A stretch of DNA of 64,000 nt from an uncultured Granulicella sp. GTDB taxonomy: Bacteria; Acidobacteriota; Terriglobia; Terriglobales; Acidobacteriaceae. Shown piece by piece: positions 1-29,786 of this stretch. Where the stretch lies: positions 2,538,085 to 2,602,084 of the forward strand of contig OZ240677.1 in assembly GCA_965198885.1 (NCBI GenBank). The letters run 5' to 3'. Positions within the stretch are counted from its first letter, which is position 1; every line of letters begins with the position of its first letter. The position numbers were made by a program, and so were the translations under genes. Below the pieces are notes generated by a model. It had not been told where the DNA came from and made no database searches. It saw nothing but the letters and a program-made list of their open reading frames with translations.

Positions 1-6
1 CTGTGT

Positions 7-2235: not shown

Positions 2236-2326
2236 CACTTCGGTGAGCGGGACAGGATAAAAGGCGGTCGATCGCAGGGATGGCGTGGTGCTTACTTGTG
2301 GGGCGCAGTGATAGTCTCATGCTTCT

Positions 2327-3544
2327 ATGAGGTTATTTTCGGGGGGACTGCGCGTGGTGCTGGTGTTGCTTGGAGCGAGTGTGGGTGCGGGTGCGCAGAA
2401 GCCGGCGGTGACCGTGCTGGTGGAGCCTCCTACGCCGCTGCTCGCGGGTAAGACGGGTGGGCTGACGCTGGGGCAGAGCGCGGCGGGGAGTACGGCGGCG
2501 GGATTCGATGAGAAGACGTGTGCGCCAGTGGCTGCGGCGGGCGGGGGAACATGCGCGGCGGTGCTGAAGGAGAATGGGCTGACCCGGTATGCGGCGGGGA
2601 CGTATGCACGGGCGGCAGGGGTTCCGGTGCCGGTGTTTGCGTTTGAGTTTGGGGATGCTACGGGGGCTTATAGCGCCTACACGTTTTACCGGGCGCTGGA
2701 GCATGGGGCTCGGGTGACGGGGGGGGATGCGAAGTCGGGGAAGGCAAGCGAGACGACGATGGATGCGGATGGGGCGCTGGTCTGGGCGGGCACGGCGATG
2801 CTGCGGGTGCAGGGGAAGACGTCGGCTGGGGAGCTTGCGGCTTTAACAGCGATGCTGCCGAAGGTCGGCGGCCGGCGTGGACTTGCGCCGCTGCTGCCGA
2901 CGTATCTGCCGGCGAAGGGGATCGAGCCCGGAACGGAGCGGTATGCGCTGGGTCCGGTGAGCTACAAGGCAATGGGCGGAATGCTTCCGGCGGACCTGCT
3001 GGATTGGGATAAGAGTGCGGAGGTCGCGACGGCGGAGTATGCCGGGCGCGGCGGTAAGGGTGCGGTGACGCTGATGCTGTATCCGACGCCGCAGATTGCA
3101 GGGGATCGGGGGCGGGCGCTGGAGAAGTATGTGAACAGCGTGGGCGTGGGGCAGTTCGGGACGTTGAAGATGCGGCGGGTGGGTCCGATGCTCGGGATGA
3201 CGACGGGAGCGCTGGGGGCGGAGCAGGCGACCGAGTTCATTGCGGGGCTGCATTTGAACCAGGATCTGAGCTTCGACAAGCCGATGCCGCTGGAGTTTCA
3301 TGCGGAGGTCAAGAAGACGGCTACGCTGCTGCAGAGCATTGCGGCGTTTTGTGGGATAGGCGTGGTGGCGGCGCTCGTGCTGGGAACATTTCTGGGTGGG
3401 GCTCGGGCGGGCATACGGGTGCTGCAGGGGAAACCGGCGGCCAGTGAGCCGGAGTTTCTGACGATTAATCTGCGCAGCGATCAGCGTGGATTGTTTGCGC
3501 CGGGAGAGAAGACGGGCGACAGGGGTGTGAGCGGACTGCACTAG
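2327..3544 (+). CDS. Conserved exported/membrane hypothetical protein (DUF6599-like, acidobacterial)
   Basis: 405 aa ORF with signal peptide (LVLLGASVGAGAQ), C-terminal TM helix (FCGIGVVAALVLGTFLGG) and host-like codon usage; family call from memory. Confidence 0.7.
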   Translation: MRLFSGGLRVVLVLLGASVGAGAQKPAVTVLVEPPTPLLAGKTGGLTLGQSAAGSTAAGFDEKTCAPVAAAGGGTCAAVLKENGLTRYAAGTYARAAGVPVPVFAFEFGDATGAYSAYTFYRALEHGARVTGGDAKSGKASETTMDADGALVWAGTAMLRVQGKTSAGELAALTAMLPKVGGRRGLAPLLPTYLPAKGIEPGTERYALGPVSYKAMGGMLPADLLDWDKSAEVATAEYAGRGGKGAVTLMLYPTPQIAGDRGRALEKYVNSVGVGQFGTLKMRRVGPMLGMTTGALGAEQATEFIAGLHLNQDLSFDKPMPLEFHAEVKKTATLLQSIAAFCGIGVVAALVLGTFLGGARAGIRVLQGKPAASEPEFLTINLRSDQRGLFAPGEKTGDRGVSGLH

Positions 3545-3707
3545 GATTGAGGCAAGAGGGGAAGTAAGCGCTACATTCGAGACGGCTTTGCTTTGCTTGA
3601 ATTCCGGTGTTAGGAGAAGGAAAAGCGAAGCAGGTTTACCCTTCGGCCAACTTTCGGCGGATCTAACTTGTCGTGAATGAACAAGTTGCAACGAAGCTGA
3701 ATAGAGC

Positions 3708-3736
3708 TTGACACGGGTTTTTGGCGCTTCTAGTAT
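3708..3736 (+). promoter_or_regulatory. Sigma70-type promoter (TTGACA-17 bp-TAGTAT)
   Basis: TTGACA at 3708-3713, 17 nt spacer, TAGTAT at 3731-3736. Confidence 0.75.
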
Positions 3737-3788
3737 TTCGCCAGAAAGTTCCGATGGCTTTGCCTCCGTTGGAGCTATTCTCCCTAAG

Positions 3789-3829
3789 GAAGAGGCTGCC
3801 CTGTTGCCGGGCGGCCTCTTCGTCGTTTT
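3789..3829 (+). terminator. Putative intrinsic terminator
   Basis: 13 bp stem GAAGAGGCTGCCC (3789-3801) / GGGCGGCCTCTTC (3809-3821) with one G-U pair and a 7 nt loop, followed by GTCGTTTT. Confidence 0.65.
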
Positions 3830-3839
3830 GGTGCGCTTT

Positions 3840-3868
3840 TTGCGGGATCGGCGATGTGGCGATAGAAT
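3840..3868 (+). promoter_or_regulatory. Sigma70-type promoter of tRNA-Thr (TTGCGG-17 bp-TAGAAT)
   Basis: TTGCGG at 3840-3845, 17 nt spacer, TAGAAT at 3863-3868, 11 nt before the tRNA 5' end. Confidence 0.65.
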
Positions 3869-3879
3869 GACTGAGGTAC

Positions 3880-3955
<76 letters not shown>

Positions 3956-10857: not shown

Positions 10858-11919
10858 TCAAAGCGGCTCATTGAGCCTTAGATCGGAAGCCTGAGCCTTC
10901 CTCCCATCGAAGTGGTCTGCCAACATCTCGGGCGTAACGTCTTCCAGCTTTGCTGGAGACCACTTCGGATTTTGATCTTTATCTACGATCGCAGCTCGAA
11001 TACCTTCCACCATGTCGTGACCTCTCGCGCACGCCTGAGCCAGAAGGAATTCCTGCCTGAAAGAGACGGCAAGATTTCCGGCAACCCGAGCGTCCCGGAT
11101 CGCCTGTAAGGTGAGCTTGAGCGATGTTGGAGACATCTTCATCAGCTCTTCAACACATGCCTGTGCCTCAGCGTTTGGATGCTGAAGCAGGGCTCCCATG
11201 ATCTCTTCCATAGTCGATGCAGCAAAGCACTCATCGATCCACGCACGATGCACCTGTGACAGGCCCGGAGGTGCCTGCGCTGCGTAATCATGCAAACACT
11301 GCTCCATCGCAGTCGTAGTCGGGCAGGCTTCAAGGTCCAACGTTAGGCGAGGCAGGTCCTCGGCGCGAACCATGATGTTGGCCAAGCCGCAAAGGATTGC
11401 GTCTGCCGCACCTATCCGGCTGCCGGTCAGGCCCAAGTAAGTGCCGATCTCGCCGGGCGCGGCGCCGAGGAGATGGGTGCCGCCAACATCCGGAATGAAG
11501 CCGATGGCGGTCTCAGGCATGGCGAGCAGCGAGCGCTCCGTCACGACGCGGTGAGAACCGTGACTCGAAATGCCGATACCACCGCCCATCACGATACCGT
11601 CCATCATGACCACATAAGGCTTCGTATAACGTGAGATGTAGTAATTGAGCTGGTACTCGTTACGAAGGAAGTCGATGGCCAATTCTCGCTGGCCGGTGAC
11701 GATGGCATGATACATCGCGCGGATGTCGCCACCCGCACAGAGTCCGCGATCGCCCGCGCCGTCGACCAGCACGAACTGAACTTGAGCATCTTGAGCCCAT
11801 TCCCGAAGGGCCGTGTGCATCGCGTTCACCATAGTAGCGCTCAATGCGTTTATGGCGCGCGGGCGGTTGAGCGTGATTCTGCCGCAAGCGCCAGACACAC
11901 GTATCAAAATATCGCTCAT
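10858..11919 (-). CDS. 3-hydroxyisobutyryl-CoA hydrolase-like crotonase-family protein
   Basis: ITLNRPRAINALS, LCAGGDIRA, GIVMGGGIGIS, AMPETAIGFIPDVG, EGIRAAIVDKDQNPKW. Confidence 0.9.
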   Translation of the reverse strand: MSDILIRVSGACGRITLNRPRAINALSATMVNAMHTALREWAQDAQVQFVLVDGAGDRGLCAGGDIRAMYHAIVTGQRELAIDFLRNEYQLNYYISRYTKPYVVMMDGIVMGGGIGISSHGSHRVVTERSLLAMPETAIGFIPDVGGTHLLGAAPGEIGTYLGLTGSRIGAADAILCGLANIMVRAEDLPRLTLDLEACPTTTAMEQCLHDYAAQAPPGLSQVHRAWIDECFAASTMEEIMGALLQHPNAEAQACVEELMKMSPTSLKLTLQAIRDARVAGNLAVSFRQEFLLAQACARGHDMVEGIRAAIVDKDQNPKWSPAKLEDVTPEMLADHFDGRKAQASDLRLNEPL

Positions 11920-11941: not shown

Positions 11942-13090
11942 TCAGGCAATCTCATGCGATTGTTCGAGGACGACGACCTGCCGAATGGCTTCTCCACTCG
12001 CCAGCCGATCAAAGCCGTGGTTGAGGTCTTCCAGTTGCAAACGATGAGTCAGGAGGCGGTCGACCGGGAGCAGCCCGGCACGATAGAGCGCGATGAAACG
12101 AGGCAAGTCGCGCGATGGCACCGAAGATCCCATATAGGATCCCTTGATGGTGCGTTCTTCTCCGACCAGACTGACCGCAGGGATACTCAACCGTTTGTCG
12201 GGAGCGGGCAAGCCGATGCTCACTGTCGTTCCGCCACGACGAGTTGCGGCGTAGGCCTGAGCAAGCACCGCTTCGTTCCCTACCGATTCGAATGCGAACT
12301 GAACACCTCCACGCGTGAAATCCCGCAGAGCTTCGACGAGATTTGTCGACCGCGCATCGATCGTATGGTGCGCTCCCAAAGCTAGCGCCAGCGACAACCG
12401 ATCCGCATTTACATCGACGGCGACGATCGGATAGGCACCCGAGCAGCGAGCCCCGAGCAGCGCCGCAAGACCCACGCCTCCAAGGCCAAAGATGGCGACA
12501 CTTTCCCCGGGTGCCACCTTCGCTGTGTTGACGACCGCACCAACCCCCGTCAGAACCGCGCAACCGAACAGCGCCGCAACCTCTGGGGAGAGTTCGCAGT
12601 CGATCTTGACGACCGACCGCGCCGAGGCCACCACATATTCGGCGAAGGCCGAGACACCGAGGTGATGCCTCAGAACATTATCTTTCGCGTCCGTCCACCG
12701 CCGCCCTCCCCTCAGCAGTTCTCCGGCAGCGTTGGCTGCGGCTCCTAACTCGCAGAGCGCTGGTCTGCCAATCTCGCATGGCTCGCATTGGCCACACATG
12801 GGTACAAACGCAAAGACCACATGATCGCCCACTTGCAAGTCCTCTACCCCCTCGCCAAGCTCCACGACTTCGCCGGCAGCTTCGTGGCCCAGCACCATCG
12901 GCAAAGGACGCGGCCGGGTTCCGTTGATGACTGACAGATCGGAATGGCAGAGACCCGCAGCGAGGATCCGCACCAGCAGTTCTCCGCGTTGGGGAGAACC
13001 TAGGTTCACCGTCTCAATAACCAGCGGTTGCGATGCCGCATAGGGCGGTGTCAGTCCGCTTTCGCGCAGGACCGCTGCTCTCACTTTCAT
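11942..13090 (-). CDS. Zinc-dependent alcohol dehydrogenase (MDR, class III-like)
   Basis: GLCHSDL, GHEAAG, structural Zn CGQCEPCEIGRPALC, FGCAVLTGVG, GLGGVG. Confidence 0.93.
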   Translation of the reverse strand: MKVRAAVLRESGLTPPYAASQPLVIETVNLGSPQRGELLVRILAAGLCHSDLSVINGTRPRPLPMVLGHEAAGEVVELGEGVEDLQVGDHVVFAFVPMCGQCEPCEIGRPALCELGAAANAAGELLRGGRRWTDAKDNVLRHHLGVSAFAEYVVASARSVVKIDCELSPEVAALFGCAVLTGVGAVVNTAKVAPGESVAIFGLGGVGLAALLGARCSGAYPIVAVDVNADRLSLALALGAHHTIDARSTNLVEALRDFTRGGVQFAFESVGNEAVLAQAYAATRRGGTTVSIGLPAPDKRLSIPAVSLVGEERTIKGSYMGSSVPSRDLPRFIALYRAGLLPVDRLLTHRLQLEDLNHGFDRLASGEAIRQVVVLEQSHEIA

Positions 13091-13518
13091 AACTGCACCC
13101 CTAGCCGCAATCTTTCAAGGGAGCTGCGCAAGATGGGCGACAGCTCAGCGGGGCGGCGACTCGCGCGATCGACAAAGACGTGTACAAACCATCCCTCTGC
13201 CACCGCCTCTACGCTTCCCTCGCGGAACAAGCCAATACCATAGCGGACGCTGCTTTTTCCCAGGTGTTCGACCCTTATCCCTGCTTCTATAATCTCGGGA
13301 AACGCAAGCTCGGCCAGAAATTTGCAATGCGATTCCGCACAAACGCCGATCGAAGCGCCTGCGTGAATGTCAAGTCCTCCACGCTCGATCAGGTACAGGT
13401 TGATGGACGTATCGAAGTAGCTGTAGTACTCGATATTGTTGACGTGCCCATAGAGATCATTGTCACGCCAGCGCGTCGCAATCGACACGAAGTGCTTGTA
13501 TTCCTTACGTTCTGCCAT
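13087..13518 (-). CDS. Acyl-CoA thioesterase (4HBT/hotdog family)
   Basis: RWRDNDLYGHVNNIEYYSYFD; start moved to ATG 13518 (MAERKEY) because the longer ORF runs antisense into the HMG-CoA reductase gene. Confidence 0.9.
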   Translation of the reverse strand: MAERKEYKHFVSIATRWRDNDLYGHVNNIEYYSYFDTSINLYLIERGGLDIHAGASIGVCAESHCKFLAELAFPEIIEAGIRVEHLGKSSVRYGIGLFREGSVEAVAEGWFVHVFVDRASRRPAELSPILRSSLERLRLGVQL

Positions 13519-13578
13519 CTCATCGATCCCTGGGGTACAAACATCGGAGGTCTTCCCTGCATGGTACGCTAACAGGCG

Positions 13579-14766
13579 ATGAAGACGAGCAATCTGGAAC
13601 GGACGCCAATTCCGCGCGACATGAACAATGACTACACGCACGAAGCCGCGGCTCGTCGGCGTGCATTCGTGGAGGATCGTACAGGCTGCCACCTTGAGCA
13701 TGTGGCGCAATACTCCTTCGCGCCTGACTTGCTGCCCGGGAATATCGAGAATTTTACCGGTATAGCGCAGGTGCCGCTCGGCATCGCAGGTCCTCTGCGC
13801 ATTCTGGGCGAGCATGCACGGGGTGACTTTTATATCCCGATGGCCACGACTGAAGGTACGCTCGTAGCCAGCTACAACCGAGGCATGCGGGTTCTAGCAG
13901 AGTGCGGCGGGGTCAAGGCAACTGTCGTCAAGCACAGCATGCAGCGTTCGCCGGTCTTCGAGCTCAACGACGCACTGCAGGCTCGCTCCTTAGGTGAGTG
14001 GATCGACTCCCATCTGCACGACATCAGGCAGGTCGCCGAAGCAACCACCTCTGCCGGCAAGCTTATCGAAATAGGCCGTTATGTTCTAGGACCGCTCCTC
14101 TATCTACGCTTCAACTACACCACCGGTGACGCAGCCGGGCAGAACATGGTCGGAAAGGCAACGCTTGCAGCGTGCCAGTGGATTCAGCAAAATCATCCCA
14201 CAAGTCCCCATTTCGTTCTCTCTGGTAACATCGACACCGATAAAAAGCACTCGCAGATGAACACCATTGAGACCCGCGGCAAACGCGTGGTTGCCGAGAT
14301 GACCGTCTCCAGCGAGATTCTGAAGCGCATCCTGGGCGTAGATGCGGTGACTCTGTTTCACGTTCGTCAGATCTCCCAAGCCGGCGCCTTCATGACGGGA
14401 TCCTCCAACAATGGAGCTCATTCCGCGAACGGGCTTACAGCGCTGTTCATCGCCACTGGTCAGGATGTCGCCAACATCGCTGAATCGCAGGCTGCCATCG
14501 TGTATGCGCAACTGCTCGCCAATGGGGATTACTACTGGTCCATTACGATCCCGTCTCTCGTCGTCGCCACGTATGGCGGAGGCACAGGATTGGCTACGCA
14601 GCGCGAATGCCTAAACCTGCTGGGCTGCTATGGCGAAGGACGAGCGAACAAGTTCGCAGAGATCTGTGCCGCCACCGTACTTGCGGGGGAGATTTCACTT
14701 TCGAGTGCGATCGTCCGCGGGGATTGGGTTTCCAGCCATGACCGGCTCGGGCGCAACCGCCCATAA
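13579..14766 (+). CDS. Class I 3-hydroxy-3-methylglutaryl-CoA reductase (catalytic domain only)
   Basis: ENFTG, PMATTEGTLVAS (catalytic Glu), GDAAGQNM, SGNIDTDKK (catalytic Lys), ATGQDVAN (Asp), ATYGGGTG, LAGEISL, C-terminal SHDRLG (His). Confidence 0.93.
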   Translation: MKTSNLERTPIPRDMNNDYTHEAAARRRAFVEDRTGCHLEHVAQYSFAPDLLPGNIENFTGIAQVPLGIAGPLRILGEHARGDFYIPMATTEGTLVASYNRGMRVLAECGGVKATVVKHSMQRSPVFELNDALQARSLGEWIDSHLHDIRQVAEATTSAGKLIEIGRYVLGPLLYLRFNYTTGDAAGQNMVGKATLAACQWIQQNHPTSPHFVLSGNIDTDKKHSQMNTIETRGKRVVAEMTVSSEILKRILGVDAVTLFHVRQISQAGAFMTGSSNNGAHSANGLTALFIATGQDVANIAESQAAIVYAQLLANGDYYWSITIPSLVVATYGGGTGLATQRECLNLLGCYGEGRANKFAEICAATVLAGEISLSSAIVRGDWVSSHDRLGRNRP

Positions 14767-14922
14767 CAAGCGCAATTACTTCCTGCACTGAAGCCCATTG
14801 CCGTTCGTTGCTGGAATCTGCTAGCATCCTCCGCGTTCCGTATTTTTCAAGTTTGGACTTGAGAAATGGCAGGGATCAGCCAATCCGCACCAGAGTCACT
14901 GGCGCTGGCAAAGGGAGAAACT

Positions 14923-16386
14923 ATGGCACTGTTGGAAGCGGAAGAGATAACCACGGCTTTGGCGGGCACCGAAGATGCGGAAGCAATTCGCAAAATGCAA
15001 TCAGCATTCCAGGCACAACGCCGGGGCTTCGCTGCGGATAGGCTGCCAACGTTTGACGACCGCCGTGGACGGATCGAGCAGATCATCACCATGATGGAAG
15101 CAAATAAGGAAGCTATCTACGCAGCGCTTAGTGCGGACTTTGGCGCACACTCTAGTGCCGCCGCCGATACCTTCGAAGTTATGCCCGTCACGGCGCGCGC
15201 CCGATTTGCCATCGCTCATCTAGAAGAGTGGATGCGGCCTGTTGCGCGCGAGGTCGACCCAGCCTATCAGGGCGCTCTGCGTGCCTTTGTTAAAAGCCAG
15301 CCTAAGGGTGTTGTCGGCAATATCGCCCCGTGGAACTTCCCGTTCGAGATCGGCATTGGGCCGATGGTTGACATCATCGCGGCCGGTAATCGCTTCATGC
15401 TGAAACCGTCTGAATATACACCTGCATGCTCGGCTCTCATGCAACAGATGGTGTCCGAGCACTTCGCAGAAGACCTCGCCTACGTTGCAGTCGGGGGCCT
15501 GGAACTCGCACGCGCCTTTAGCGCTCTGCCCTTCGATCATCTGCTCTATACGGGAAGTTCGAATGTAGGCAAAGAAATCATGGCGGCTGCCGCCCAGAAC
15601 CTCACCCCGGTAACACTCGAACTTGGCGGTAAATGCCCAGCGGTGTTCCTGCCCGGCAGTGTCACTCCTGACCTGGTCAATATGGTGGTAGGGGTCAAGA
15701 GCGTCAAAAACGGGCAAATGTGTGTCTCAGTCGATCATTGTTTTGTGCCACGAGGAGAGCTTGATAACTTTGCGCGGATGGCTACCGAGTTCATGACTGC
15801 GGCTATGCCCGGGTATGCGCGGTCGCAGGCTTGCACCGGTATCATCTCGGACCGGCACCTTGACCGTATCGGCGAAATGCTCGCGGAGGCGGAAGCGCGA
15901 GACGTGCGGATTGTGACGCTCGAGAAGGATGGCCAAGTGGATCGGCAGAGCCGCCAAATGCCGCTCTCATTGGTGCTGGATCCGCCTCAGGATTTACGAA
16001 TGATGAAGGAGGAGATCTTTGGGCCCATCATTCCAGTCATCCCTTACGACGAGCTCGATGAAGTCATTGAGCGCATCAATGACAGCGATCGTCCGTTAGG
16101 CGTCTACGTGATGGGGAACGACGTGCCGATGGTTGACCACGTGCTTAGCGAGACTATCTCAGGCGGCGCAGCAGTCAATGCGGCGGCCATCCAGGCTGGG
16201 TTGAAGGATTTGGGGTTCGGCGGCGTCGGCATGAGCGGCATGGGGCGCCATCACGGTCTTGACGGCTTCCGTGAATTTTCAAACCAGCGCGGCGTCGTCG
16301 TACGGGGAGAAGGACCGCACTTTGATGCATTTGTCTCGAGTGGCCAACATGCGGCGGAGTTGGTCGGCCAAGTTCCCAGTGGTTAG
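14923..16386 (+). CDS. Aldehyde dehydrogenase, coniferyl-aldehyde dehydrogenase (CalB)-like
   Basis: APWNFP, KPSEYTP, LELGGKCP, catalytic GQMCVS, EEIFGP; start at 14923 follows an AGGGAG RBS (alternative start 14866). Confidence 0.88.
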   Translation: MALLEAEEITTALAGTEDAEAIRKMQSAFQAQRRGFAADRLPTFDDRRGRIEQIITMMEANKEAIYAALSADFGAHSSAAADTFEVMPVTARARFAIAHLEEWMRPVAREVDPAYQGALRAFVKSQPKGVVGNIAPWNFPFEIGIGPMVDIIAAGNRFMLKPSEYTPACSALMQQMVSEHFAEDLAYVAVGGLELARAFSALPFDHLLYTGSSNVGKEIMAAAAQNLTPVTLELGGKCPAVFLPGSVTPDLVNMVVGVKSVKNGQMCVSVDHCFVPRGELDNFARMATEFMTAAMPGYARSQACTGIISDRHLDRIGEMLAEAEARDVRIVTLEKDGQVDRQSRQMPLSLVLDPPQDLRMMKEEIFGPIIPVIPYDELDEVIERINDSDRPLGVYVMGNDVPMVDHVLSETISGGAAVNAAAIQAGLKDLGFGGVGMSGMGRHHGLDGFREFSNQRGVVVRGEGPHFDAFVSSGQHAAELVGQVPSG

Positions 16387-16471: not shown

Positions 16472-17248
16472 TTAAGACTGACCAGCCAGACGGCCGAGGA
16501 TCTCCGTCCGAAAGCCGGCCAGACGGCCCCCGTCGACGATGATAGTTTGCCCTGTGATGTAACGACTCTCATCACTGACGAGGAAGTGATACACCCCTAC
16601 CAGATCGTCGATCTCCGCAATACGGCCTAGGGCTGAGAGGTTCTTCGCTAGTGCGTTGAGGATGTGGGTGGGTGGGAGCATTGGCGTCTTCACCGGACCC
16701 GGCGCTACGGCGTTGCAGCGAATGCCGCGCCGACCGAGCTCCACTGCCGATGTCTTCGCCAAGCTGATCGTGGCCGCCTTCGTCGCGCTGTAATCGAAGA
16801 AACCTTCATTTTGCTGAAGACCGGCGACGGAAGCCGTCAAAACGATCGAGCCGCCGTCCTGCATATGGGATGGCCCATACTTTAAGATGTAGTACGTTCC
16901 GTAGAAGTTTAGATTCACGACACCATCCAGCACCTCCTCGTCGGAGTCCGTGATGTGCTTTCCATTTCCCGGCTTACCCGCATTGTGGATGATCGCGTTG
17001 AGTTTGCCGATGGCCATCTCCGCCTGATCGAATGCCTCAATCACTTGCTCGCGCTCGCTCACATCGACCTTGCGGTAGATGCCTCCAGCATCTAGAACGG
17101 ATTGAGGAGGTGGATTCAGGTCCGCCACCACGACGCGGGCACCCTCCTGTAGACAGCGCTGCACGGTGCCCAGCCCAATGCCTGAAGCGCCCCCGGTTAT
17201 AAAGATCGACTTGTCACGAAGACTGAAATGCGCTGACGTTTCCACCAT
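16472..17248 (-). CDS. Short-chain dehydrogenase/reductase (SDR)
   Basis: TGGASGIG, HNAG, YSATK (YxxxK), NAVAPG, YITGQTIIVDGG; start at 17248 after AGGGAG. Confidence 0.93.
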   Translation of the reverse strand: MVETSAHFSLRDKSIFITGGASGIGLGTVQRCLQEGARVVVADLNPPPQSVLDAGGIYRKVDVSEREQVIEAFDQAEMAIGKLNAIIHNAGKPGNGKHITDSDEEVLDGVVNLNFYGTYYILKYGPSHMQDGGSIVLTASVAGLQQNEGFFDYSATKAATISLAKTSAVELGRRGIRCNAVAPGPVKTPMLPPTHILNALAKNLSALGRIAEIDDLVGVYHFLVSDESRYITGQTIIVDGGRLAGFRTEILGRLAGQS

Positions 17249-17298
17249 ATCTCTCCCTTTGGAATGTTCGTAACAATCTCCAATGATGATTCGCCGTT

Positions 17299-19008
17299 CT
17301 AGTAATTCGGCAGACCGCTGAAGGCGGTAACCGGCGGCATGGCATTCGGGTCGGCAATGATGTCGAGAAGCACCGAACCCTCCGCCGCCATCGCCTCTTG
17401 GATTGCTCCTGCAATATCCTGAGCGCGCTCGACGCGAATGCCCTTCACGCCACAAGCCTCCGCGATTGCCGCATGATCGACCGAAACGAAATCGCAAACA
17501 TTGGTATGGCGTCCAAGCCCGGCATCTTCGGCGTGCTTTTGGTAGCCGAGAACACCGTTATTCATCACGGCTACCACGACCTTGATGCCGTGGCGCCGAG
17601 TAGTCTCAAGTTCCGACCAGACATGCCCAAACCCACCGTCGCCGACGACGCACACTACCGGCCTTTCAGGGCTGCCAAGCCGCGCTCCCATTGCCATCGG
17701 AAAGCCCCAGCCCAGCCCAGCCTGGCCTCGTGGCGTGATGAAGCGGCGGTTGAACTTGGCGGATAGGTAATTGGCTACCCAAATGGACGAAAAGCTCGCA
17801 TCCGCCACGATGATGTGATCTCTGGATAGCTGCTTTTCAAGTTCGACAATGAAGCGTTCTGGACGAATCGGCGATGCATCCGATTGCGTCACGCCGGCAA
17901 TCTCTTCGTAATGACTGGCCCGCGCCGCTGCGATGGCCTCCTCAACCCCCGCACGCGCAGCCTCCCGCTTGCTTAGATCCTGACCAGCCAGAGCAGCGTT
18001 CAACGCAGCCAGAGTCACCTTGGCGTCGCCTTGCAGCCGAAATGCCTCATAGTTTCGGCCGATCTCCATGGGGTCAACGTCGAGATGGATGTATGTCGCG
18101 TCTTTCGGCAGTAGCTTCCAGGAATCTGTCCCGTTTTGGTTGGTGCGGTTGCCAATAAGCAGAATCAGGTCGGCGTTGGTGATCATCGGCTTGACGAACT
18201 TCGCCATACCGCGCGTCGCCATGTAGTAGCCGATAACACCCATCGACAAAGGATGCGTCTCATCGACGCCGCCTTTCCCCATTGTGGTGGTAGCTACCGG
18301 CAAGTGTGCAATTTCCTGTAATTCCCGCAACTCCTTATGCGCTCCCGACCCGATTACACCTCCGCCTGCGTAAACCATCGGCGCTCTGGAATGAGCGAGC
18401 ATCTCTGCCGCACGTGCAATTGAGCTCTGCTCCGGCTGGTTGCGGTCCAGCGGATAAGTGCCCAACTTCGCCATGCGCGTCGACGCAGGGCGCTCTTCCG
18501 CTTGCATGAGCAACTCCATCGAAACCAGGAGCACCGCTGGGCCGGAGCGCCCGCTCGCGGCGGCCGTAAATGCCATATCCACATAGTCTTCGATCCGATC
18601 GGCGGTGGTGACCCGACGAATCCACTTGGCTACGCCTTTGAACAGGTCCAATTGGTCCAGCTCCTGAAAGGCGTTCCGATCCTGGGTTCCGGGGCCGACA
18701 TCCTGTACAAGCGCCACGATGGGAACGGATGCGGACAAGCACTCCGCCAGCCCCGCCACCAGCAATGTAGCGGCAGGACCGTTCTGTGCGGTGACGACCG
18801 GGACCTTGCCGCTCACACGCGCGTAACCGTCTGCCATGTAAGTACCGGCGTTCTCCTGGCGGTAGCCAATCTGGCGAATGCCGAGATCGTCCGCCGCGAG
18901 AGTAATGCCCGGCGGATTACTTTGCCCAAACAAGTACTCAACCCCATGCCGCTTCAGCGCGTGGGCAAATCTTTGCGGAGGCCGCATCATCCATTGTGTT
19001 TCGCTCAT
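17299..19008 (-). CDS. Thiamine diphosphate-dependent enzyme (acetolactate synthase-like family, function unassigned)
   Basis: RQENAGTYMADGYARV (ThDP Glu), QNGPAAT, GLGWGFPMAMGA, ThDP motif GDGGFG...VMNN. Confidence 0.9.
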   Translation of the reverse strand: MSETQWMMRPPQRFAHALKRHGVEYLFGQSNPPGITLAADDLGIRQIGYRQENAGTYMADGYARVSGKVPVVTAQNGPAATLLVAGLAECLSASVPIVALVQDVGPGTQDRNAFQELDQLDLFKGVAKWIRRVTTADRIEDYVDMAFTAAASGRSGPAVLLVSMELLMQAEERPASTRMAKLGTYPLDRNQPEQSSIARAAEMLAHSRAPMVYAGGGVIGSGAHKELRELQEIAHLPVATTTMGKGGVDETHPLSMGVIGYYMATRGMAKFVKPMITNADLILLIGNRTNQNGTDSWKLLPKDATYIHLDVDPMEIGRNYEAFRLQGDAKVTLAALNAALAGQDLSKREAARAGVEEAIAAARASHYEEIAGVTQSDASPIRPERFIVELEKQLSRDHIIVADASFSSIWVANYLSAKFNRRFITPRGQAGLGWGFPMAMGARLGSPERPVVCVVGDGGFGHVWSELETTRRHGIKVVVAVMNNGVLGYQKHAEDAGLGRHTNVCDFVSVDHAAIAEACGVKGIRVERAQDIAGAIQEAMAAEGSVLLDIIADPNAMPPVTAFSGLPNY

Positions 19009-19078
19009 TGTTCAACCTTCCAGTTAGAAACCGTACAGCGTTGATGTTGAGGGGCTACGAGCCGACGATGCTTCACGC

Positions 19079-20098
19079 TCAGGGCTTGATGAGCACCTTG
19101 CAGTGGTCGTTCGGCTTGCCGAGATGTGCAAACATTGCGGAGGCTTCATCCAGGCCGACGATATCGGTGATCAAGTGATCTACCGATATCCTGCGGGCAG
19201 TCATCATCCGCTGCACGAAGTGGAAATCGCCCGGTACATAGGCGAAAGGAAATGTGATGCGCAGCCGTTTCATGGCGGCTGAGACCACCGTAAAGTTTTC
19301 CGGCTGCATTCCCGTCCCAACCATTACCAGTTGCGTATGCGAAGGCGCCATCGCAATCATTTTGTCGATCATTGGGCGGCCGACGCACTCAAAGATCGCG
19401 GTGGGTTTGCGTCCCGTACGACTCTCAAACTCTGCGACCGGGTTTGCGTGTTGCGCCGCGTCGATGATGAGGTCGAAACCGATCCGCTCAGCCCGTGTCC
19501 GGCGTGCGGGCACCATCTCGCTGATGCCTATGTCGCCGGCACCGAAGAACTCAGCCCATTTCGCAACAGCGAGGCCAATCACGCCGGCTCCCAGGATGAG
19601 AACGCTCGCGCCCGGTTCGATTTTGGCAGTCCTCCAGGCGTTCAACCCGACGGCCATTGGCTCGATCGTAGCCGCTTCATCGTCTGAGAGAGCGTCTGAA
19701 ATCTTGACTGCCAGAGCCGCCATGCACGTCGAGTATTCGGCGAACGCGCCCGGCATCCTGGGATCGAAGCCCTGTGCGATGATCTGACTGCACTGTCCGT
19801 AGAGGCCAGCCCGGCACTCCGGGCAGGCGCCGCAGGGACGTGCGGGAACCGCGGTCAGGCGATCTCCGACCTGCCACCCATCACAGCCCTGTCCAACCTC
19901 GACCACTTCACCCGAGTACTCGTGGCCGAGCGTGCTTCTTGGATGCAGCAGCCCGGGAACCTCGACGGCGTGAAGGTCCGATCCGCAGATGCCGCAAGCC
20001 TTCACCTTGAAGACTAGCCCTCCGGGCGATGCGCTCGGCTTTGCTACCTCTGCAAGTTCCAACGGTCTACCGATCTCCACAAACTGCAGCGTTTTCAT
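19079..20098 (-). CDS. Zinc-dependent alcohol/polyol dehydrogenase (MDR)
   Basis: GICGSDLH, GHEYSG, CGACPEC...C, GAGVIG; start MKTLQF at 20098 after GAGGGA. Confidence 0.92.
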   Translation of the reverse strand: MKTLQFVEIGRPLELAEVAKPSASPGGLVFKVKACGICGSDLHAVEVPGLLHPRSTLGHEYSGEVVEVGQGCDGWQVGDRLTAVPARPCGACPECRAGLYGQCSQIIAQGFDPRMPGAFAEYSTCMAALAVKISDALSDDEAATIEPMAVGLNAWRTAKIEPGASVLILGAGVIGLAVAKWAEFFGAGDIGISEMVPARRTRAERIGFDLIIDAAQHANPVAEFESRTGRKPTAIFECVGRPMIDKMIAMAPSHTQLVMVGTGMQPENFTVVSAAMKRLRITFPFAYVPGDFHFVQRMMTARRISVDHLITDIVGLDEASAMFAHLGKPNDHCKVLIKP

Positions 20099-20139
20099 CG
20101 TTCCCTCGTTTCCACTCTGTTCTTTTTGTAGCGCCTGAT

Positions 20140-20751
20140 CTAACGTTCCAGTCCCTTGAGAGCAAACATTTCGATCGAGTTCATTAGTCGGTCCACTGTC
20201 AGGCCATCGACCGACGGAACCCATTTGCCGAGCCAGATGAGCATCCCCAACAGAAGCTCCACTACCAACTCCGGCTCACATTGCACGATAGAGCGGTCCG
20301 CCATGCCTTCTTTGAAGAAGCGGATCAGGATCAACTTGAGCCGGTCGACCCATTGTCGAATTGCTTTCCGCTGCGCCGTGTCCAGATAGGAATAATCGCC
20401 CAGGTAGAGAAGCGCACCATTGTCTCTTGAATCGGTGAGCATGCTGTCGATGAAGCGACGCAGCTTTTCGGACCCAGATCCGGGGCATTTATCGGAGGCC
20501 TCCAAGAGGCGTTGCGCCCTCTCTAACGAACTGCGATGACACGCGTAGGCGAGCGTCCGCTTGTCGTGAAAGTAGTGGTACAGAGTGGCGTCGCGAAGAT
20601 CTACGGCCGCAGCGATGTCAACCATTGTGGCTTGCGCATAGCTTTTTGCGTTGATTGTTTGGATCGCCGCCCGAATGATCTCGGCACGGCGTTTATCTGA
20701 CTTGCGGCTCTTAGAAAGGTTCTTCTTCGGTTTTACTCTACTCGTCGCCAT
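20140..20751 (-). CDS. TetR/AcrR family transcriptional regulator
   Basis: IIRAAIQTINAKSYAQATMVDIAAAVDLRDATLYHYFHDK HTH; C-terminal LLGMLIWLGKW. Confidence 0.9.
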   Translation of the reverse strand: MATSRVKPKKNLSKSRKSDKRRAEIIRAAIQTINAKSYAQATMVDIAAAVDLRDATLYHYFHDKRTLAYACHRSSLERAQRLLEASDKCPGSGSEKLRRFIDSMLTDSRDNGALLYLGDYSYLDTAQRKAIRQWVDRLKLILIRFFKEGMADRSIVQCEPELVVELLLGMLIWLGKWVPSVDGLTVDRLMNSIEMFALKGLER

Positions 20752-20820
20752 AGGGATCGATGAACCGGCCTCTTCGCCAACTGTCTGACGCCAGTGAGCA
20801 TTCTGACACATCTAGCGTGT

Positions 20821-21015: not shown

Positions 21016-24000
21016 ATGAACTTCAGAGGGTCAGCTTTCTATTGCAACGCAAGCACTAACGCAGCAACGGCGGTATGGAGTCTTCGTGGTACTTTAATCC
21101 GCTTCCTGATTCCGGCCTTATTGGCAGTTCTCGCTGCTCCTCCGAGTTCGGCGCAATCCGGTTATTCCACTGGAACGGTTCGCGGTTCCGTGACTGACGC
21201 ACAGGGTGCACTGGTTCCAAACGCAACCGTGCTGGTGAAAAACACAGGAACCGCCCAGGTCCGGACTGTGAAGACAGGCCTCGATGGAACCTATGAGGTT
21301 CCGACCCTCAATCCCGGCTCTTACTCGGTTGAAGTCACCGCTCCCGGCTTCAGTAAATTGGTAGCGGCTGAAATCGTGGTCTCAGTCGGTCAGACGGTTG
21401 CGTATGACGCTCACCTTAAAGTCGGAAGCGCCGACACGATTGTAGAAGTTACTGGGAACTCATCGCCTCTGATCGACGCGGCGCAGACCCAGCAGGCTAA
21501 TACGATCGATCAACGGCAGCAGGTGAATCTGCCGAACCTTTCGCGAAACTTTGCGCAGCAATTGTTTACGTTGCCGGGCGTCGTGGATTCGAACGCGCCT
21601 GCGATTCAGGACCCGAACGTCGGCACGGGATATCAGTCTTCAGGGGCGTCGTTTGGTGGCGGGAATGGCCGTGGAAACTTGTTTACCATCGACGGCGGCG
21701 AAAACGACTACGGCTCAGGTGCGCCTCGCGAAGCCCACGTGCCTCAGGACTCCGTGCAGGAGTTCCAGGTGAACCGCAACTCATTCGGCGCGGAGTTTGG
21801 TTTCACGTTGGGCTCCGCGATCAACGTGGTCACCAAGAGCGGAACCAATCAATTTCACGGCAGCGCCTTCGGGTACTTTCACGATGAGACCACCGATGCG
21901 GTGAATTACTTCAACAGCTACGGCCCCACCGCCGGACAGCGTCCATTTGAACAGAGCGCAATCTTTGGTGGCTCGGTTGGTGGTTTTCTAAAGAAGAACA
22001 AGCTGTTCTTCTTTACGTCCTATGAGCGACAGAAGCTGGACAGCAATATCACTACGAACCTGCTGGGAACGGCGGAGGCGCAGGGACTCAACGCGCAGGC
22101 AAACAACTTCAATGGCGTAACTTGCCCGGCCCCAGTGACGCAGGCTTGCTATTTAGCCCAGTTGACAGCCGTCGGCGCAGGTGCGATCGCGAGTGCGGTC
22201 GCACCTGCTTTGACACCGATCAACAACCCTCAGTTTGTCAATTTGATTGCACCGGATAGCGGCACCTTCGATGGTAACGCGCTGGGCGCGGTGCAGTCTG
22301 CTCCAGGACAGAACGGGCGATACAACAATCTCGTGACCCGTCTGGATTTCACGCAAAATGAGAAGAACACCTATTCCTTGCGCTTTGCTTACTCGCACGA
22401 GCAGAACGAAGTGACCGGCGCGGGTGGGGTCCCGCGTTTTACCTCGGTCATTCAGCAGTTGCGAGACTACACAATCACGGCGAACTGGAACCACATCTTC
22501 AATCCAAACGTGGTGAACACAGTGCGGGTGCAAGTGGTTCCGTTCAACTCTTCCGATAACAACACACCGCATGGTGGGGCAGAGTTCGATTTCGGCAGCC
22601 TTGGAACTGTTGGAACGATCTTCGATATTCCTTATAACCAGAGCCAAAACCAATATCAGTTCGACGATGATCTTTCGTACTCCAAGGGTAGCCATAACCT
22701 GAAGTTCGGCGGTTCGTTCCGGCCAGTGCAGTTCAACATCTTCCAAGCTTTTCTCTTTGGTGGCGACTATCAGTTTCAAGATGGAGCGGTCCGACTGTAT
22801 GACCTTTTTGCAGGGTCACCTGCAGCAATCGGTGCGCTCAACGCCATCAACGCTGCGTTCGGCTATCCAACAGGCGGCCCGCCGACGACCAATCTAAGCG
22901 CAGCGCAACTGTACAGTGTTGGCCTCCCGATTGTCTTGGAGCAGGGAGCAGGCAACGGACAATACAACGCCACCACGAAGCCCTTCGGCGTGTATGCACA
23001 GGATTCGTGGAAGGCAACCCACAATTTAACTCTCAACTATGGTGGCAGGTTCGACTACGATCCGATCCCAAACAACTATCCGACCGGCTACTTCTTCTCG
23101 CCACGGCTTGGTTTTGCGTGGGATCCGTTTGGCAATGGTAAGACGGTCATCCGGGCGGGCGGCGGCTTGTTTACCGCCCCCGAACTGTTCATTGTTCCGT
23201 TTACATCGACGGTCCTAGACGGAACGGCTAACCATATCTTTGCGACGGTGACGACGGCTGCGAACTCGGCTCCGCAATTAGAAGGAGCTCTTGCGATAGA
23301 GAAAAGCGAGGCGTTCGCCGCTAATCCCAACCCGGCGCTTACGGTCGGACAGCTAGGTACAGTTGGTATCAACGTGATCCCGAACGGGCCGACGAAGACC
23401 GGCGGCGCATTCTTTACAGTAGACCCTGACTTCAAGCAGCAATATTCGATTCAGGCGAGTGCAAGCGTAGCTCAGGAGCTTGCTCCTAATCTGTCGTTCG
23501 AACTTGGCTACATTTACTATGCGGGCATTCACATCCAACAAATTCAAGAAGCTAATCTAGCTCCCTACGCACCTGCGGGCGTTGATCCCTTTGTCGGTCC
23601 TTACTATCTTCCTAAGCCTGGTTCAACCGATGGAGAGGCGAACAACACTATTACACAGAACGATGAGACAACGTCCGCAGGTCACTCGACCTATAACGGT
23701 CTAACGGCTTCGTTGACCAAGAGATATGGACACGGGCTCCAGTTTCAAGCGAACTATACCTGGAGTAAGGCGATTGATAACGTCAGTGACTTCAGTTCGC
23801 AAAGCACGCCGTTCCGCCCCGGCCTCCTAAATCTAGACCGTGCTGTTTCGGACTTCAACATCAAGAACAGCTTTGTGGCGAATGCCGTCTACACAAGCCC
23901 TCTACATCACGGCGGGGACGGCCTCTTCAGGAATGTTTACTCCGATTTTGTTATAGCCCCGATCGTGCAGGTCCGTGATGGAGTCCCTTTCACGGAACTT

Positions 24001-24438
24001 GTCCCTGGCATCGGCGGAGCGGCGTCTAATGGCAACTCATCACACACGAGTGAAGCGCGGCCATTCCATGAAGGTCGTAACTTGGGTGTTGGTCCCGGCT
24101 ATGCATCGTTCGATCTGCGAATCTCGCGGGCGATCGTTTTGAGGCGGGATACGCCGCTGCGTTTGAATCTGATTGCGCAGTCATCCAACGTCCTAAACCA
24201 CACCAATTTTACAAGCGTGCAGAACATATTCCCCAATACGGGCAACTCGAACATGCCCGGCGTCGCCACAACCGCAGCTCTCGTCGACACGCCAGAGGGC
24301 ACCGTGGATCTACTCAATGGGCCATATAACCTGAAAGGATTCCGGCCCGCCGGCGCGGCCCAATTAACCAGTCCGCTAGCGTTCAAGACGGCGGCTCCTC
24401 CACGGCAGATCAGCTTTGGCCTTGAACTGGCTTTCTAG
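21016..24438 (+). CDS. TonB-dependent outer-membrane receptor with N-terminal carboxypeptidase-regulatory-like domain (acidobacterial Oar-like)
   Basis: GTVRGSVTDAQGALVPNATV, SVQEFQVNRNSFGAEFG, VTKSGTNQFHGSAFGYF, FSPRLGFAWDPFG, C-terminal LELAF. Confidence 0.92.
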   Translation: MNFRGSAFYCNASTNAATAVWSLRGTLIRFLIPALLAVLAAPPSSAQSGYSTGTVRGSVTDAQGALVPNATVLVKNTGTAQVRTVKTGLDGTYEVPTLNPGSYSVEVTAPGFSKLVAAEIVVSVGQTVAYDAHLKVGSADTIVEVTGNSSPLIDAAQTQQANTIDQRQQVNLPNLSRNFAQQLFTLPGVVDSNAPAIQDPNVGTGYQSSGASFGGGNGRGNLFTIDGGENDYGSGAPREAHVPQDSVQEFQVNRNSFGAEFGFTLGSAINVVTKSGTNQFHGSAFGYFHDETTDAVNYFNSYGPTAGQRPFEQSAIFGGSVGGFLKKNKLFFFTSYERQKLDSNITTNLLGTAEAQGLNAQANNFNGVTCPAPVTQACYLAQLTAVGAGAIASAVAPALTPINNPQFVNLIAPDSGTFDGNALGAVQSAPGQNGRYNNLVTRLDFTQNEKNTYSLRFAYSHEQNEVTGAGGVPRFTSVIQQLRDYTITANWNHIFNPNVVNTVRVQVVPFNSSDNNTPHGGAEFDFGSLGTVGTIFDIPYNQSQNQYQFDDDLSYSKGSHNLKFGGSFRPVQFNIFQAFLFGGDYQFQDGAVRLYDLFAGSPAAIGALNAINAAFGYPTGGPPTTNLSAAQLYSVGLPIVLEQGAGNGQYNATTKPFGVYAQDSWKATHNLTLNYGGRFDYDPIPNNYPTGYFFSPRLGFAWDPFGNGKTVIRAGGGLFTAPELFIVPFTSTVLDGTANHIFATVTTAANSAPQLEGALAIEKSEAFAANPNPALTVGQLGTVGINVIPNGPTKTGGAFFTVDPDFKQQYSIQASASVAQELAPNLSFELGYIYYAGIHIQQIQEANLAPYAPAGVDPFVGPYYLPKPGSTDGEANNTITQNDETTSAGHSTYNGLTASLTKRYGHGLQFQANYTWSKAIDNVSDFSSQSTPFRPGLLNLDRAVSDFNIKNSFVANAVYTSPLHHGGDGLFRNVYSDFVIAPIVQVRDGVPFTELVPGIGGAASNGNSSHTSEARPFHEGRNLGVGPGYASFDLRISRAIVLRRDTPLRLNLIAQSSNVLNHTNFTSVQNIFPNTGNSNMPGVATTAALVDTPEGTVDLLNGPYNLKGFRPAGAAQLTSPLAFKTAAPPRQISFGLELAF

Positions 24439-24466
24439 ATCTTCTGCCTTGTAAAGGACGGCGGCT

Positions 24467-24495
24467 CCTGCCCATTGAAGCAAACAGTGGGCGGG
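24467..24495 (+). other. Intergenic stem-loop after the TonB receptor gene
   Basis: CCTGCCCATTG / CAGTGGGCGGG, 11 bp with two G-U pairs, 7 nt loop, no U-tract. Confidence 0.4.
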
Positions 24496-24516
24496 CGACG
24501 CCGAGGAAAAATTCTC

Positions 24517-25008
24517 ATGCATAACAAGGCTCTGAAGTACGTTATTGTCGAGAGCACGGGGAGCGGAGTTGTGAACGGCATCCTAAACTGTGCCGCGGCC
24601 TTTCTCCTCTTTCACGGACGAGGCCAGATTCCAATTGCAGGACCTCTCGGTCTGGTCCGGGACTTGATTGGAGAGACCTTTCTCGTAGCATCCCTCAGCT
24701 ACATGGCGGCTGCACTTATTTCTCGCCAGCGCCATCGTGCCGGAAACCTGCCTACAATGAGAACCGGGCAAGCGGCTTCTCCAAGAAACGTTTATCTTTG
24801 GTCCCTTAGCCTTGGTATTCTTTTCACAAGCGTTCTGGTGCCAATGGGCGGGCTCCTCCTTCCTCGGGCTTTTCCCGATGGCATTAGTTTCAGGAACCTC
24901 GTGCTGTTCAAAACACTCTTCGGCGCAATCCTAGGCTCGATTGCAACTTGGCTTGCCATTCACCGAGCGTTAAGCGAGCTCCACCCCCTCGAAGGCCTGA
25001 CAAATTAG
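24517..25008 (+). CDS. Hypothetical membrane protein (about 4 TM)
   Basis: Hydrophobic segments (GVVNGILNCAAAFLLF; LSLGILFTSVLVPMGGLLL; LFGAILGSIATWLAI); same strand between the receptor and the monooxygenase. Confidence 0.7.
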   Translation: MHNKALKYVIVESTGSGVVNGILNCAAAFLLFHGRGQIPIAGPLGLVRDLIGETFLVASLSYMAAALISRQRHRAGNLPTMRTGQAASPRNVYLWSLSLGILFTSVLVPMGGLLLPRAFPDGISFRNLVLFKTLFGAILGSIATWLAIHRALSELHPLEGLTN

Positions 25009-25080
25009 CTTCTTCGCTCCAGTCGTCCTTTGTACCACTCCGACAGCGACGACTTGGAATTCACCGAAATTGAGGATTCT

Positions 25081-29707: not shown

Positions 29708-29786
29708 CCAGACTAAGTTCCACTCTGCGGCGCCAAGCGCGTGCTAAGACGGCAACACTTTACGGATTGTCCAAGGATTGAATCGT

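Follow-up and report, generated by a model that had tools for sequence, protein, structure and literature searches.

What is a class I hydroxymethylglutaryl-CoA (HMG-CoA) reductase doing in a bacterium where no other gene of mevalonate metabolism accompanies it? The question is raised by a gene in a 64,000-nt stretch of DNA (hereafter the window; contig OZ240677.1 of assembly GCA_965198885.1, positions 2,538,085 to 2,602,084) from an uncultured Granulicella sp. The gene is an intact, ATG-started open reading frame with a product of 395 aa. The original prediction regarded this product as a stand-alone class I HMG-CoA reductase (HMGR) that may either oxidize mevalonate or a related branched diol or reduce an acyl-CoA other than HMG-CoA. 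On the basis of sequence comparison, we consider it probable, at roughly 0.7, that its product is an FcrA-family enzyme of the core-only type, converting fatty acyl-CoA to primary fatty alcohol. The acyl-CoA reductase half of the prediction is supported by signature residues, phylogeny and the context of orthologues; the oxidation of mevalonate or a branched diol is not. The idea that the class I fold would thereby gain a new role is outdated, since the description and assay of FcrA date from February 2025 (Grossi et al. 2025, ISME J; PMC11948995). Most likely, therefore, the enzyme type is already described.

FcrA reduces fatty acyl-CoA, is derived from class I HMGR and depends on NADPH. In the published analysis, a large clade with good support among the "class I HMGR" homologues consists of fatty acyl-CoA reductases whose hosts are bacteria and haloarchaea without the mevalonate pathway, and the majority of bacterial "class I HMGRs" are FcrA (PMC11948995); as cited there, Gophna et al. 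2006 had earlier suggested that orphan class I enzymes of bacteria have functions other than that of HMGR. Purified Pb-FcrA from "Ca. Promineifilum breve" used NADPH as donor and formed fatty alcohol from acyl-CoA of C14 or longer; it was inactive on HMG-CoA and on free aldehyde and was not inhibited by simvastatin, and the N. pharaonis enzyme (Np-FcrA) was modelled (PMC11948995). The four HMGR catalytic residues are retained in FcrA. Leu862 (human numbering) is replaced by a bulky residue in every FcrA and Lys735 by a generally small one (the paper prints "Lys795", but 735 follows from the N. pharaonis numbering); these changes shut out HMG-CoA and open a long hydrophobic pocket (PMC11948995). 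The Ser684 position is occupied by Glu (Glu360) in N. pharaonis FcrA, for which alone the residue is given. Additional domains are variable, either a beta-rich "Lad" long-chain alkyl carrier or an acyl carrier protein, and both characterised FcrAs have an N-terminal alkyl-carrier domain (PMC11948995).

The window protein matched the Pfam family HMG-CoA_red (PF00368) with 412.8 bits (E 1.6e-123) over profile positions 2-368 of 368. Against TIGR00533, the class I model, the score was 355.9 bits, under the equivalog cut-off of 441.8, and against TIGR00532, the class II degradative model, it was a mere 34.5 bits (cut-off 259.95). The closest solved structure was 6hr7, an archaeal class I HMGR (305 bits; 43% identity over the aligned core). 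Equivalences to human positions were taken from HMMER alignments to 6hr7 and 8ecg and from MAFFT columns. The catalytic Glu, Lys, Asp and His of the original prediction were all present, as Glu57, Lys222, Asp296 and His387, and its DAAGQNM and NIDTDKK motif variants were confirmed (Table 1). The bulky residue at position 862 is Trp383, and the Lys that binds the HMG carboxylate is gone from position 735, where Ser266 stands; residues 264-267 hold no Lys. DAAGQNM itself is not peculiar to the fcrA-type gene: it is frequent in HMGR look-alikes, including two of the three examined proteins that bear the N-terminal domain PF25653, and one branch of look-alikes retains DAMG(L/M)NM.

Phylogenetic placement agreed with these residues. 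An exhaustive HMMER search returned 4064 relatives at E <= 0.001, from which the best 150 cluster representatives were used. In the alignment of representatives, ten sequences, 6hr7 and the plant enzyme 8ecg included, carry Ser684, Lys735, Leu862 and DAMGMN(M/I). Position 862 is Trp, Phe, Tyr or His in nearly all non-canonical representatives; two with Leu at this position are without the remaining HMGR motifs. In an IQ-TREE phylogeny of 64 sequences, built, like the other tree, without the two published FcrA sequences (Np-FcrA and Pb-FcrA), a 100/100 branch split the ten canonical class I HMGRs from the other 54. The window protein (P0001) belonged to an 8-member core-only subfamily (100/100), itself nested in a 10-member Trp862 clade (95/84). 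P0122 is added at the 9-member level, and the tenth member is probably P0123; both have an N-terminal extension of 115-120 aa matching Pfam HMG-CoA_red_N (PF25653), the architecture of the characterised FcrAs. A FastTree phylogeny of 129 sequences agreed, though its local support was weaker. Pairwise comparison pointed the same way, P0001 being 58% identical over 384 aa, with zero gaps, to P0398, a PF25653+PF00368 protein. At its two ends P0398 (MAIGIPS..., ...EKYGRNR) is similar to Pb-FcrA, whose termini were derived from the published cloning primers (MALAIPS..., ...EKYGRNR). The window protein begins at the conserved IPRD...D(Y/W), which comes after the linker in PF25653-bearing proteins. 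PF25653 already models the N-terminal domain of the longer FcrA-type proteins (P0122, P0123, P0125 and P0292-P0410), and NCBIfam release 20 contains no FcrA-specific model.

The genome provided the metabolic setting. It is a single 4.46-Mb contig with an estimated completeness of 98.8%, and its nearest relatives place the host in the Acidobacteriaceae, close to Granulicella, Edaphobacter and Tunturiibacter. PF00368 matched once genome-wide. Searches of the whole genome found no HMG-CoA synthase above the cut-off (best 29.8 bits), no diphosphomevalonate decarboxylase and no mevalonate kinase, the sole 75-bit GHMP-kinase match carrying a galactokinase signature domain (archaeal-type alternative kinases were not searched). 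DXR, of the methylerythritol phosphate (MEP) route, was found at 444.6 bits. With none of the three mevalonate enzymes and a clear DXR, the fcrA-type gene therefore stands alone in an MEP organism; isoprenoids are made by the MEP route in this genome. The earlier statement that the 64-kb window has no gene for HMG-CoA synthase, mevalonate kinase or decarboxylase is correct, and the genome searches extend it.

The context of orthologues connected the active-site variant with fatty alcohols. A scan with one genome per species yielded 80 loci at 66-87% identity, from Acidobacteriaceae, Bryobacteraceae, Nevskiaceae, Burkholderiales, Methylobacteriaceae, Actinomycetota and others. DAAGQN(M/L) and SG..DTDKK were found in 80/80, and W-V-x-x-H was recovered in 55, the segment being missed by the search pattern in the remaining 25. 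By neighbour clustering, a wax ester synthase/diacylglycerol acyltransferase (WS/DGAT; Pfam WS_DGAT_cat, 249 bits) lay within 5 kb of fcrA in 10 of the 80 loci and an AMP-binding acyl-CoA synthetase in 13. The relatives with either gene nearby are 67-70% identical and carry the same motifs; the Ser/Asp signature at 684/688 occurred in 10/10 of the orthologues near WS/DGAT and also in those beside acyl-CoA synthetases. PhaR, phasin-like proteins and alpha/beta hydrolases were recurring neighbours too. Because the same active-site variant adjoins wax-ester genes elsewhere, it is tied, in other bacteria, to the metabolism of fatty alcohols and wax esters. These orthologues with identical motifs, together with the changes of Lys735 to Ser and Leu862 to Trp, are what speak against the proposed oxidation of mevalonate or a branched diol.

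In two Stenotrophobium loci (L022, 6-1070; L035, 3873-4937), an SDR (short-chain dehydrogenase/reductase) gene of the NAD_binding_4 ("male sterility") type lies immediately upstream of fcrA on the same strand. NAD_binding_4 is the fold of classical fatty acyl-CoA/aldehyde reductases, and Stenotrophobium thus pairs two unrelated reductase types for the same chemistry. In the window, the genome's best match (36% identity) to the fcrA-adjacent acyl-CoA synthetases of other phyla is encoded 15 kb downstream of fcrA.

The fcrA genes of Acidobacteriaceae form one clade (21 sequences, SH-aLRT 97), and their partners differ from those in other phyla. In the window the flanking genes encode a hotdog-fold thioesterase and an aldehyde dehydrogenase (ALDH), as originally predicted and now confirmed with Pfam. 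The thioesterase gene is divergent from fcrA across a 60-nt spacer, and its stop overlaps by 4 nt the start of a zinc-dependent alcohol dehydrogenase (ADH) gene. In 16 of the 20 Acidobacteriaceae loci, fcrA has orthologues of this thioesterase and ADH within 3 kb, in at least four arrangements relative to it (divergent, convergent, or with one gene between), and an ALDH orthologue lies within 5 kb in 12 of the 20. Outside this group, a Verrucomicrobia metagenome-assembled genome (MAG) carries a 69%-identical ADH gene 14 nt downstream of an fcrA that belongs to the Nevskia branch. The ECH_2 gene, 22 nt past the ADH gene on the same strand, is retained in just six of the closest loci, and it and a nearby acyl-CoA dehydrogenase gene are kept only in the few closest genomes. 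The same cluster is present in Tunturiibacter psychrotolerans X4BP1 (L014), of a culturable lineage. Within the divergent spacer, the core CATG(G/C)TA..CTA of the motif CTGCATGGTACGCTA is kept in eight Acidobacteriaceae loci and the remainder of the spacer is not. The motif could be an operator, or the -10 region of a transcript with almost no leader; a promoter and terminator scan of 10.8-16.6 kb found no more sites than in shuffled sequence.

Table 1. Positions in the window of the fcrA-type gene, its diagnostic residues and the neighbouring features
Feature	Position	Strand	Remarks
fcrA-type gene	13579..14766	+	Core domain only, without N-terminal PF25653/Lad domain; probable assignment from PF00368, tree and 58% identity to P0398
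Glu57 codon	13747..13749	+	Aligns to human Glu559, catalytic
DAAGQNM (for DAMGMNM), aa 184-190	14128..14148	+	From the alignment table
Ser215 to Asp219	14221..14235	+	Human Ser684 to Cys688 position; subfamily signature SGN(I/V/M)DTDKK
NIDTDKK, aa 217-223	14227-14247	+	
Lys222 codon	14242..14244	+	Aligns to human Lys691, catalytic; within NIDTDKK
Ser266 codon	14374..14376	+	Human Lys735 position
Asp296 codon	14464..14466	+	Aligns to human Asp767, catalytic
Trp383 codon	14725..14727	+	Human Leu862 position; bulky residue is the FcrA signature (PMC11948995)
His387 codon	14737..14739	+	Aligns to human His866, catalytic; C-terminal helix
Motif CTGCATGGTACGCTA	13557..13571	+	Ends 7 nt before the fcrA ATG; intergenic alignment
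4HBT hotdog acyl-CoA thioesterase	13087..13518	-	Pfam 4HBT_2/4HBT; PDB 2av9 (which we take to be P. aeruginosa PA5185), 164 bits
Zn-dependent ADH, class I/III ADH-like	11942..13090	-	Pfam ADH_N + ADH_zinc_N; PDB human/horse liver ADH, 240-263 bits
ECH_2/3-hydroxyisobutyryl-CoA hydrolase-type gene	10858..11919	-	ECH_2, 409 bits; NF004127, 424 bits, above cut-off
Class 3-type ALDH	14866..16386	+	99 nt downstream of fcrA, same strand; Pfam Aldedh, 245 bits; best PDB matches steroid aldehyde dehydrogenase 9nxl (top), benzaldehyde dehydrogenase, ALDH3A1 and fatty aldehyde dehydrogenase 4qgk
TetR/Zn-ADH/ThDP enzyme/SDR operon	16472-20811	-	Zn-ADH at 19079-20224; thiamine diphosphate (ThDP) enzyme of PRK06112 subfamily, 864 bits
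Barrel/small protein/monooxygenase set	21016-26532	+	CarboxypepD_reg + OMP_b-brl_4 outer-membrane barrel, small protein, FMO-like Baeyer-Villiger monooxygenase
Best match to fcrA-adjacent acyl-CoA synthetases	29778-31382	+	
tRNA-Thr	3880-3955		

Two further gene groups stand close to fcrA and the ALDH gene. The first, an operon for a TetR regulator, a second zinc-dependent ADH, a ThDP enzyme and an SDR, lies beside them and accompanies fcrA in about ten Acidobacteriaceae loci, including the rearranged L032, L034, L036 and L068; a carbon-carbon cleaving or acyloin-type reaction is possible for it. The second, about 4 kb from the pair, comprises the outer-membrane barrel, the small protein and the Baeyer-Villiger monooxygenase, which resembles flavin-containing monooxygenases (FMO). 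This set directly adjoins fcrA-ALDH in L006 and L010. In five Bryobacteraceae/Terriglobia loci (L056, L062, L073, L084 and L088), fcrA is immediately preceded, after a gap of 39-137 nt, by a same-strand gene for a barrel of this family, and in the Acidobacteriaceae locus L019 such a gene lies 215 nt upstream on the opposite strand. The TonB-type barrel is thus repeatedly linked to fcrA in two separate clades.

The composition of the surrounding DNA was also examined. Strand asymmetry across the genome is extreme and comes in blocks: GC skew in 5-kb windows ranged from -0.43 to +0.39 (standard deviation 0.20), with an absolute value above 0.2 in 43% of windows. There were about 80 strongly positive blocks, about 80 strongly negative ones (median 10-12 kb) and about 160 unskewed ones, with a replichore-like trend superimposed, and absolute skew correlated with GC content (r = 0.57). 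The skew resides in third codon positions. Within the same block, GC skew at these positions was +0.36 to +0.69 in + genes and -0.34 to -0.67 in - genes, so that the skew follows the DNA strand and not the coding strand. The fcrA cluster, like the best match to the acyl-CoA synthetases, is located in a 30-kb unskewed block of lower third-position GC (3900-34000), which contrasts with 1-3900 and 34000-64000 of the window. Although the left edge of this block is the tRNA-Thr gene, a genomic island was rejected: the far boundary bears no direct repeat of the tRNA end, no integrase was seen, and about one third of the genome is equally unskewed. In a related Granulicella MAG (L030), the entire fcrA locus lies within a block of +0.2 to +0.3 skew.

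By homology to the assayed enzyme, the window protein would probably catalyse the four-electron reduction of long-chain acyl-CoA to alcohol with the HMGR catalytic residues. The acyl-CoA thioester would accept two hydrides (donated by NADPH in Pb-FcrA), through a bound thiohemiacetal and aldehyde, with Glu57, Lys222, Asp296 and His387 in catalysis. Trp383 and the loss of the Lys735 partner would exclude HMG-CoA and open a hydrophobic pocket. The conserved linkage suggests that FcrA, the thioesterase-ADH pair and the class 3 ALDH act at one metabolic node, where the four enzymes would turn long-chain acyl-CoA, acid, aldehyde and alcohol into one another and the thioesterase would set the acyl-CoA pool. 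Most likely, fatty alcohol is produced, with ADH and ALDH as return path and aldehyde scavengers. The neighbour types fit the chemistry of hydrophobic alcohols and aldehydes, and their linkage outlasts several rearrangements, which supports the FcrA reading.

Several observations weigh against this assignment. The trees connect the window protein with Np-FcrA and Pb-FcrA through look-alikes, and the presumed kinship is drawn from architecture and signature, not from direct comparison. Unlike both characterised FcrAs, the protein lacks the N-terminal domain, and it retains Ser684, which is Glu in N. pharaonis FcrA. The absence of that domain does not exclude membership, because extra domains are treated as variable in the family (PMC11948995). 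As for Ser684, most of the PF25653-bearing proteins examined have an acidic residue (Glu or Asp) at this position and Ala at 688, and comparison with the Ser684/Asp688 pair suggests that the acidic residue may have swapped place within the loop. The position of the Arg that contacts the NADPH 2'-phosphate in class I HMGR, which we take to be human Arg627, is Ser in the window protein. Close relatives and proteins bearing the N-terminal domain have Arg, Ser, Lys or Pro at this position, a variation that gives no indication of cofactor preference. The genome has no WS/DGAT to consume the alcohol: neither TIGR02946 nor tblastn with ten WS/DGATs of related loci gave a match in the whole genome. 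The alcohol therefore does not enter WS/DGAT wax esters. Finally, the adjoining ADH, ALDH and two CoA-ester hydrolases would reverse the reduction. The catabolic look of the neighbours, pointed out in the original prediction, is correct.

As fcrA frequently occurs without WS/DGAT, other roles such as ether lipids have been proposed for it (PMC11948995). We tentatively raise a scheme for the Acidobacteriaceae, rather unlikely as it stands, in which the fcrA-ALDH/thioesterase-ADH module would not serve storage lipids in the absence of a wax-ester synthase. The module would serve either ATP-independent, CoA-acylating oxidation of imported long-chain alcohols to acyl-CoA, as a class I-fold counterpart of degradative HMGR, or the supply of fatty alcohol for ether-linked membrane lipids (iso-diabolic acid glycerol monoethers, precursors of brGDGTs, the branched glycerol dialkyl glycerol tetraethers). 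The origin of the ether bond in iso-diabolic acid and brGDGT-type lipids is still debated (PMC10087280).

An oxidative function also deserves consideration on its own terms, although we judge it unlikely. In Acidobacteriaceae, a member of the same family would convert long-chain alcohol, CoA and two NAD(P)+ to acyl-CoA, an ATP-free entry to beta-oxidation analogous to class II HMGR acting on mevalonate in Pseudomonas mevalonii. The alcohol would be imported, or freed from esters or ketones through the nearby Baeyer-Villiger monooxygenase route. This would account for the oxidative and catabolic neighbours (ADH, class 3 ALDH, acyl-CoA dehydrogenase, ECH_2 hydrolase and TetR regulators), for the TonB-type barrel and monooxygenase operon 4 kb away, which adjoins fcrA-ALDH in two loci, and for the same-strand barrel gene directly upstream of fcrA in five others; the missing WS/DGAT and the Ser in place of the 2'-phosphate Arg agree with it. 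However, the assayed FcrA is an NADPH-dependent reductase, and wax-ester synthesis, to which orthologues whose active-site motifs are identical are linked, requires reduction. ADH and ALDH already constitute an oxidative route, so a second is not needed, and the cofactor position is variable within the subfamily.

A second alternative retains the FcrA fold and the four-electron reduction but changes the substrate to a 3-hydroxy, branched, steroid-side-chain or aromatic acyl-CoA. It draws support from Ser215, which is kept, and from Asp219, which is specific to the subfamily; 12 of 59 putative FcrAs were modelled with pockets too small for a C14 chain (PMC11948995). Among PDB entries the ALDH is closest to a steroid aldehyde dehydrogenase, and a 3-hydroxyisobutyryl-CoA hydrolase-type gene belongs to the divergent operon, with an acyl-CoA dehydrogenase gene nearby. 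Against these points, the Ser/Asp signature is shared by all WS/DGAT-linked orthologues and by those beside fatty acyl-CoA synthetases, and the conservation of the ECH_2 and acyl-CoA dehydrogenase genes ends with the closest few genomes; we regard such a substrate as quite improbable. A genuine HMGR, which would either serve biosynthesis in a mevalonate pathway that escaped recognition or degrade mevalonate, would explain the complete fold, the catalytic tetrad and the Arg retained at the Arg590 position, but is very hard to reconcile with the score under the TIGR00533 cut-off, the changes at Lys735 and Leu862, the 100/100 branch away from canonical HMGRs, a genome with DXR in which HMG-CoA synthase, mevalonate kinase and diphosphomevalonate decarboxylase were not found, and an assayed family member that is inactive on HMG-CoA and insensitive to simvastatin. 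A class II degradative HMGR was ruled out by the TIGR00532 score.

The assignment to a core-only FcrA can be set against the known systems. The window protein resembles FcrA in its intact tetrad, Trp at Leu862, loss of Lys735, DAAGQNM, a host without the mevalonate pathway, orthologues beside WS/DGAT and acyl-CoA synthetase genes, and 58% identity to a protein with the architecture of the assayed enzyme. It differs in lacking the PF25653 ("Lad") domain and in having Ser instead of Glu at 684 with Asp four residues on, and its host has no WS/DGAT, the linkage being instead to thioesterase, Zn-ADH and class 3 ALDH. With canonical class I HMGR (EC 1.1.1.34; human 1dq8 and M. thermolithotrophicus 6hr7) it shares the fold, the tetramer-type catalytic domain, the catalytic residues and about 40% identity, but Lys735, Leu862, DAMGMNM and NxCxDKK are changed, the score is below the equivalog cut-off, the clade is separate and the genome has no pathway partners. 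Class II HMGR of Pseudomonas mevalonii (TIGR00532) is a precedent for an oxidative, catabolic HMGR-type enzyme, of a different class and with a different substrate. The SDR-type alcohol-forming reductases (Marinobacter FarA/Maqu_2220 and AcrB/Maqu_2507; the reductase domain of myxobacterial ElbD) likewise convert acyl-CoA overall to fatty alcohol at the expense of NADPH, and they supply wax esters or ether lipids. Their fold is unrelated (Rossmann NAD_binding_4), and they reduce free aldehyde too, whereas Pb-FcrA does not.

The practical gain is correct annotation. The window gene and hundreds of close relatives are named "hydroxymethylglutaryl-CoA reductase (NADPH)" in public databases, and the HMGR label wrongly implies mevalonate metabolism in bacteria that use the MEP pathway. 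The putative core-only FcrA subfamily, with its Ser684/Asp688 signature, extends at 66-87% identity across Acidobacteriota, Pseudomonadota, Actinomycetota and others, and in Acidobacteriaceae without WS/DGAT it is locked to thioesterase, ADH and ALDH. According to the authors of its description, FcrA must have roles beyond wax esters (PMC11948995), and the Acidobacteriaceae locus offers a concrete, testable case in a culturable lineage.

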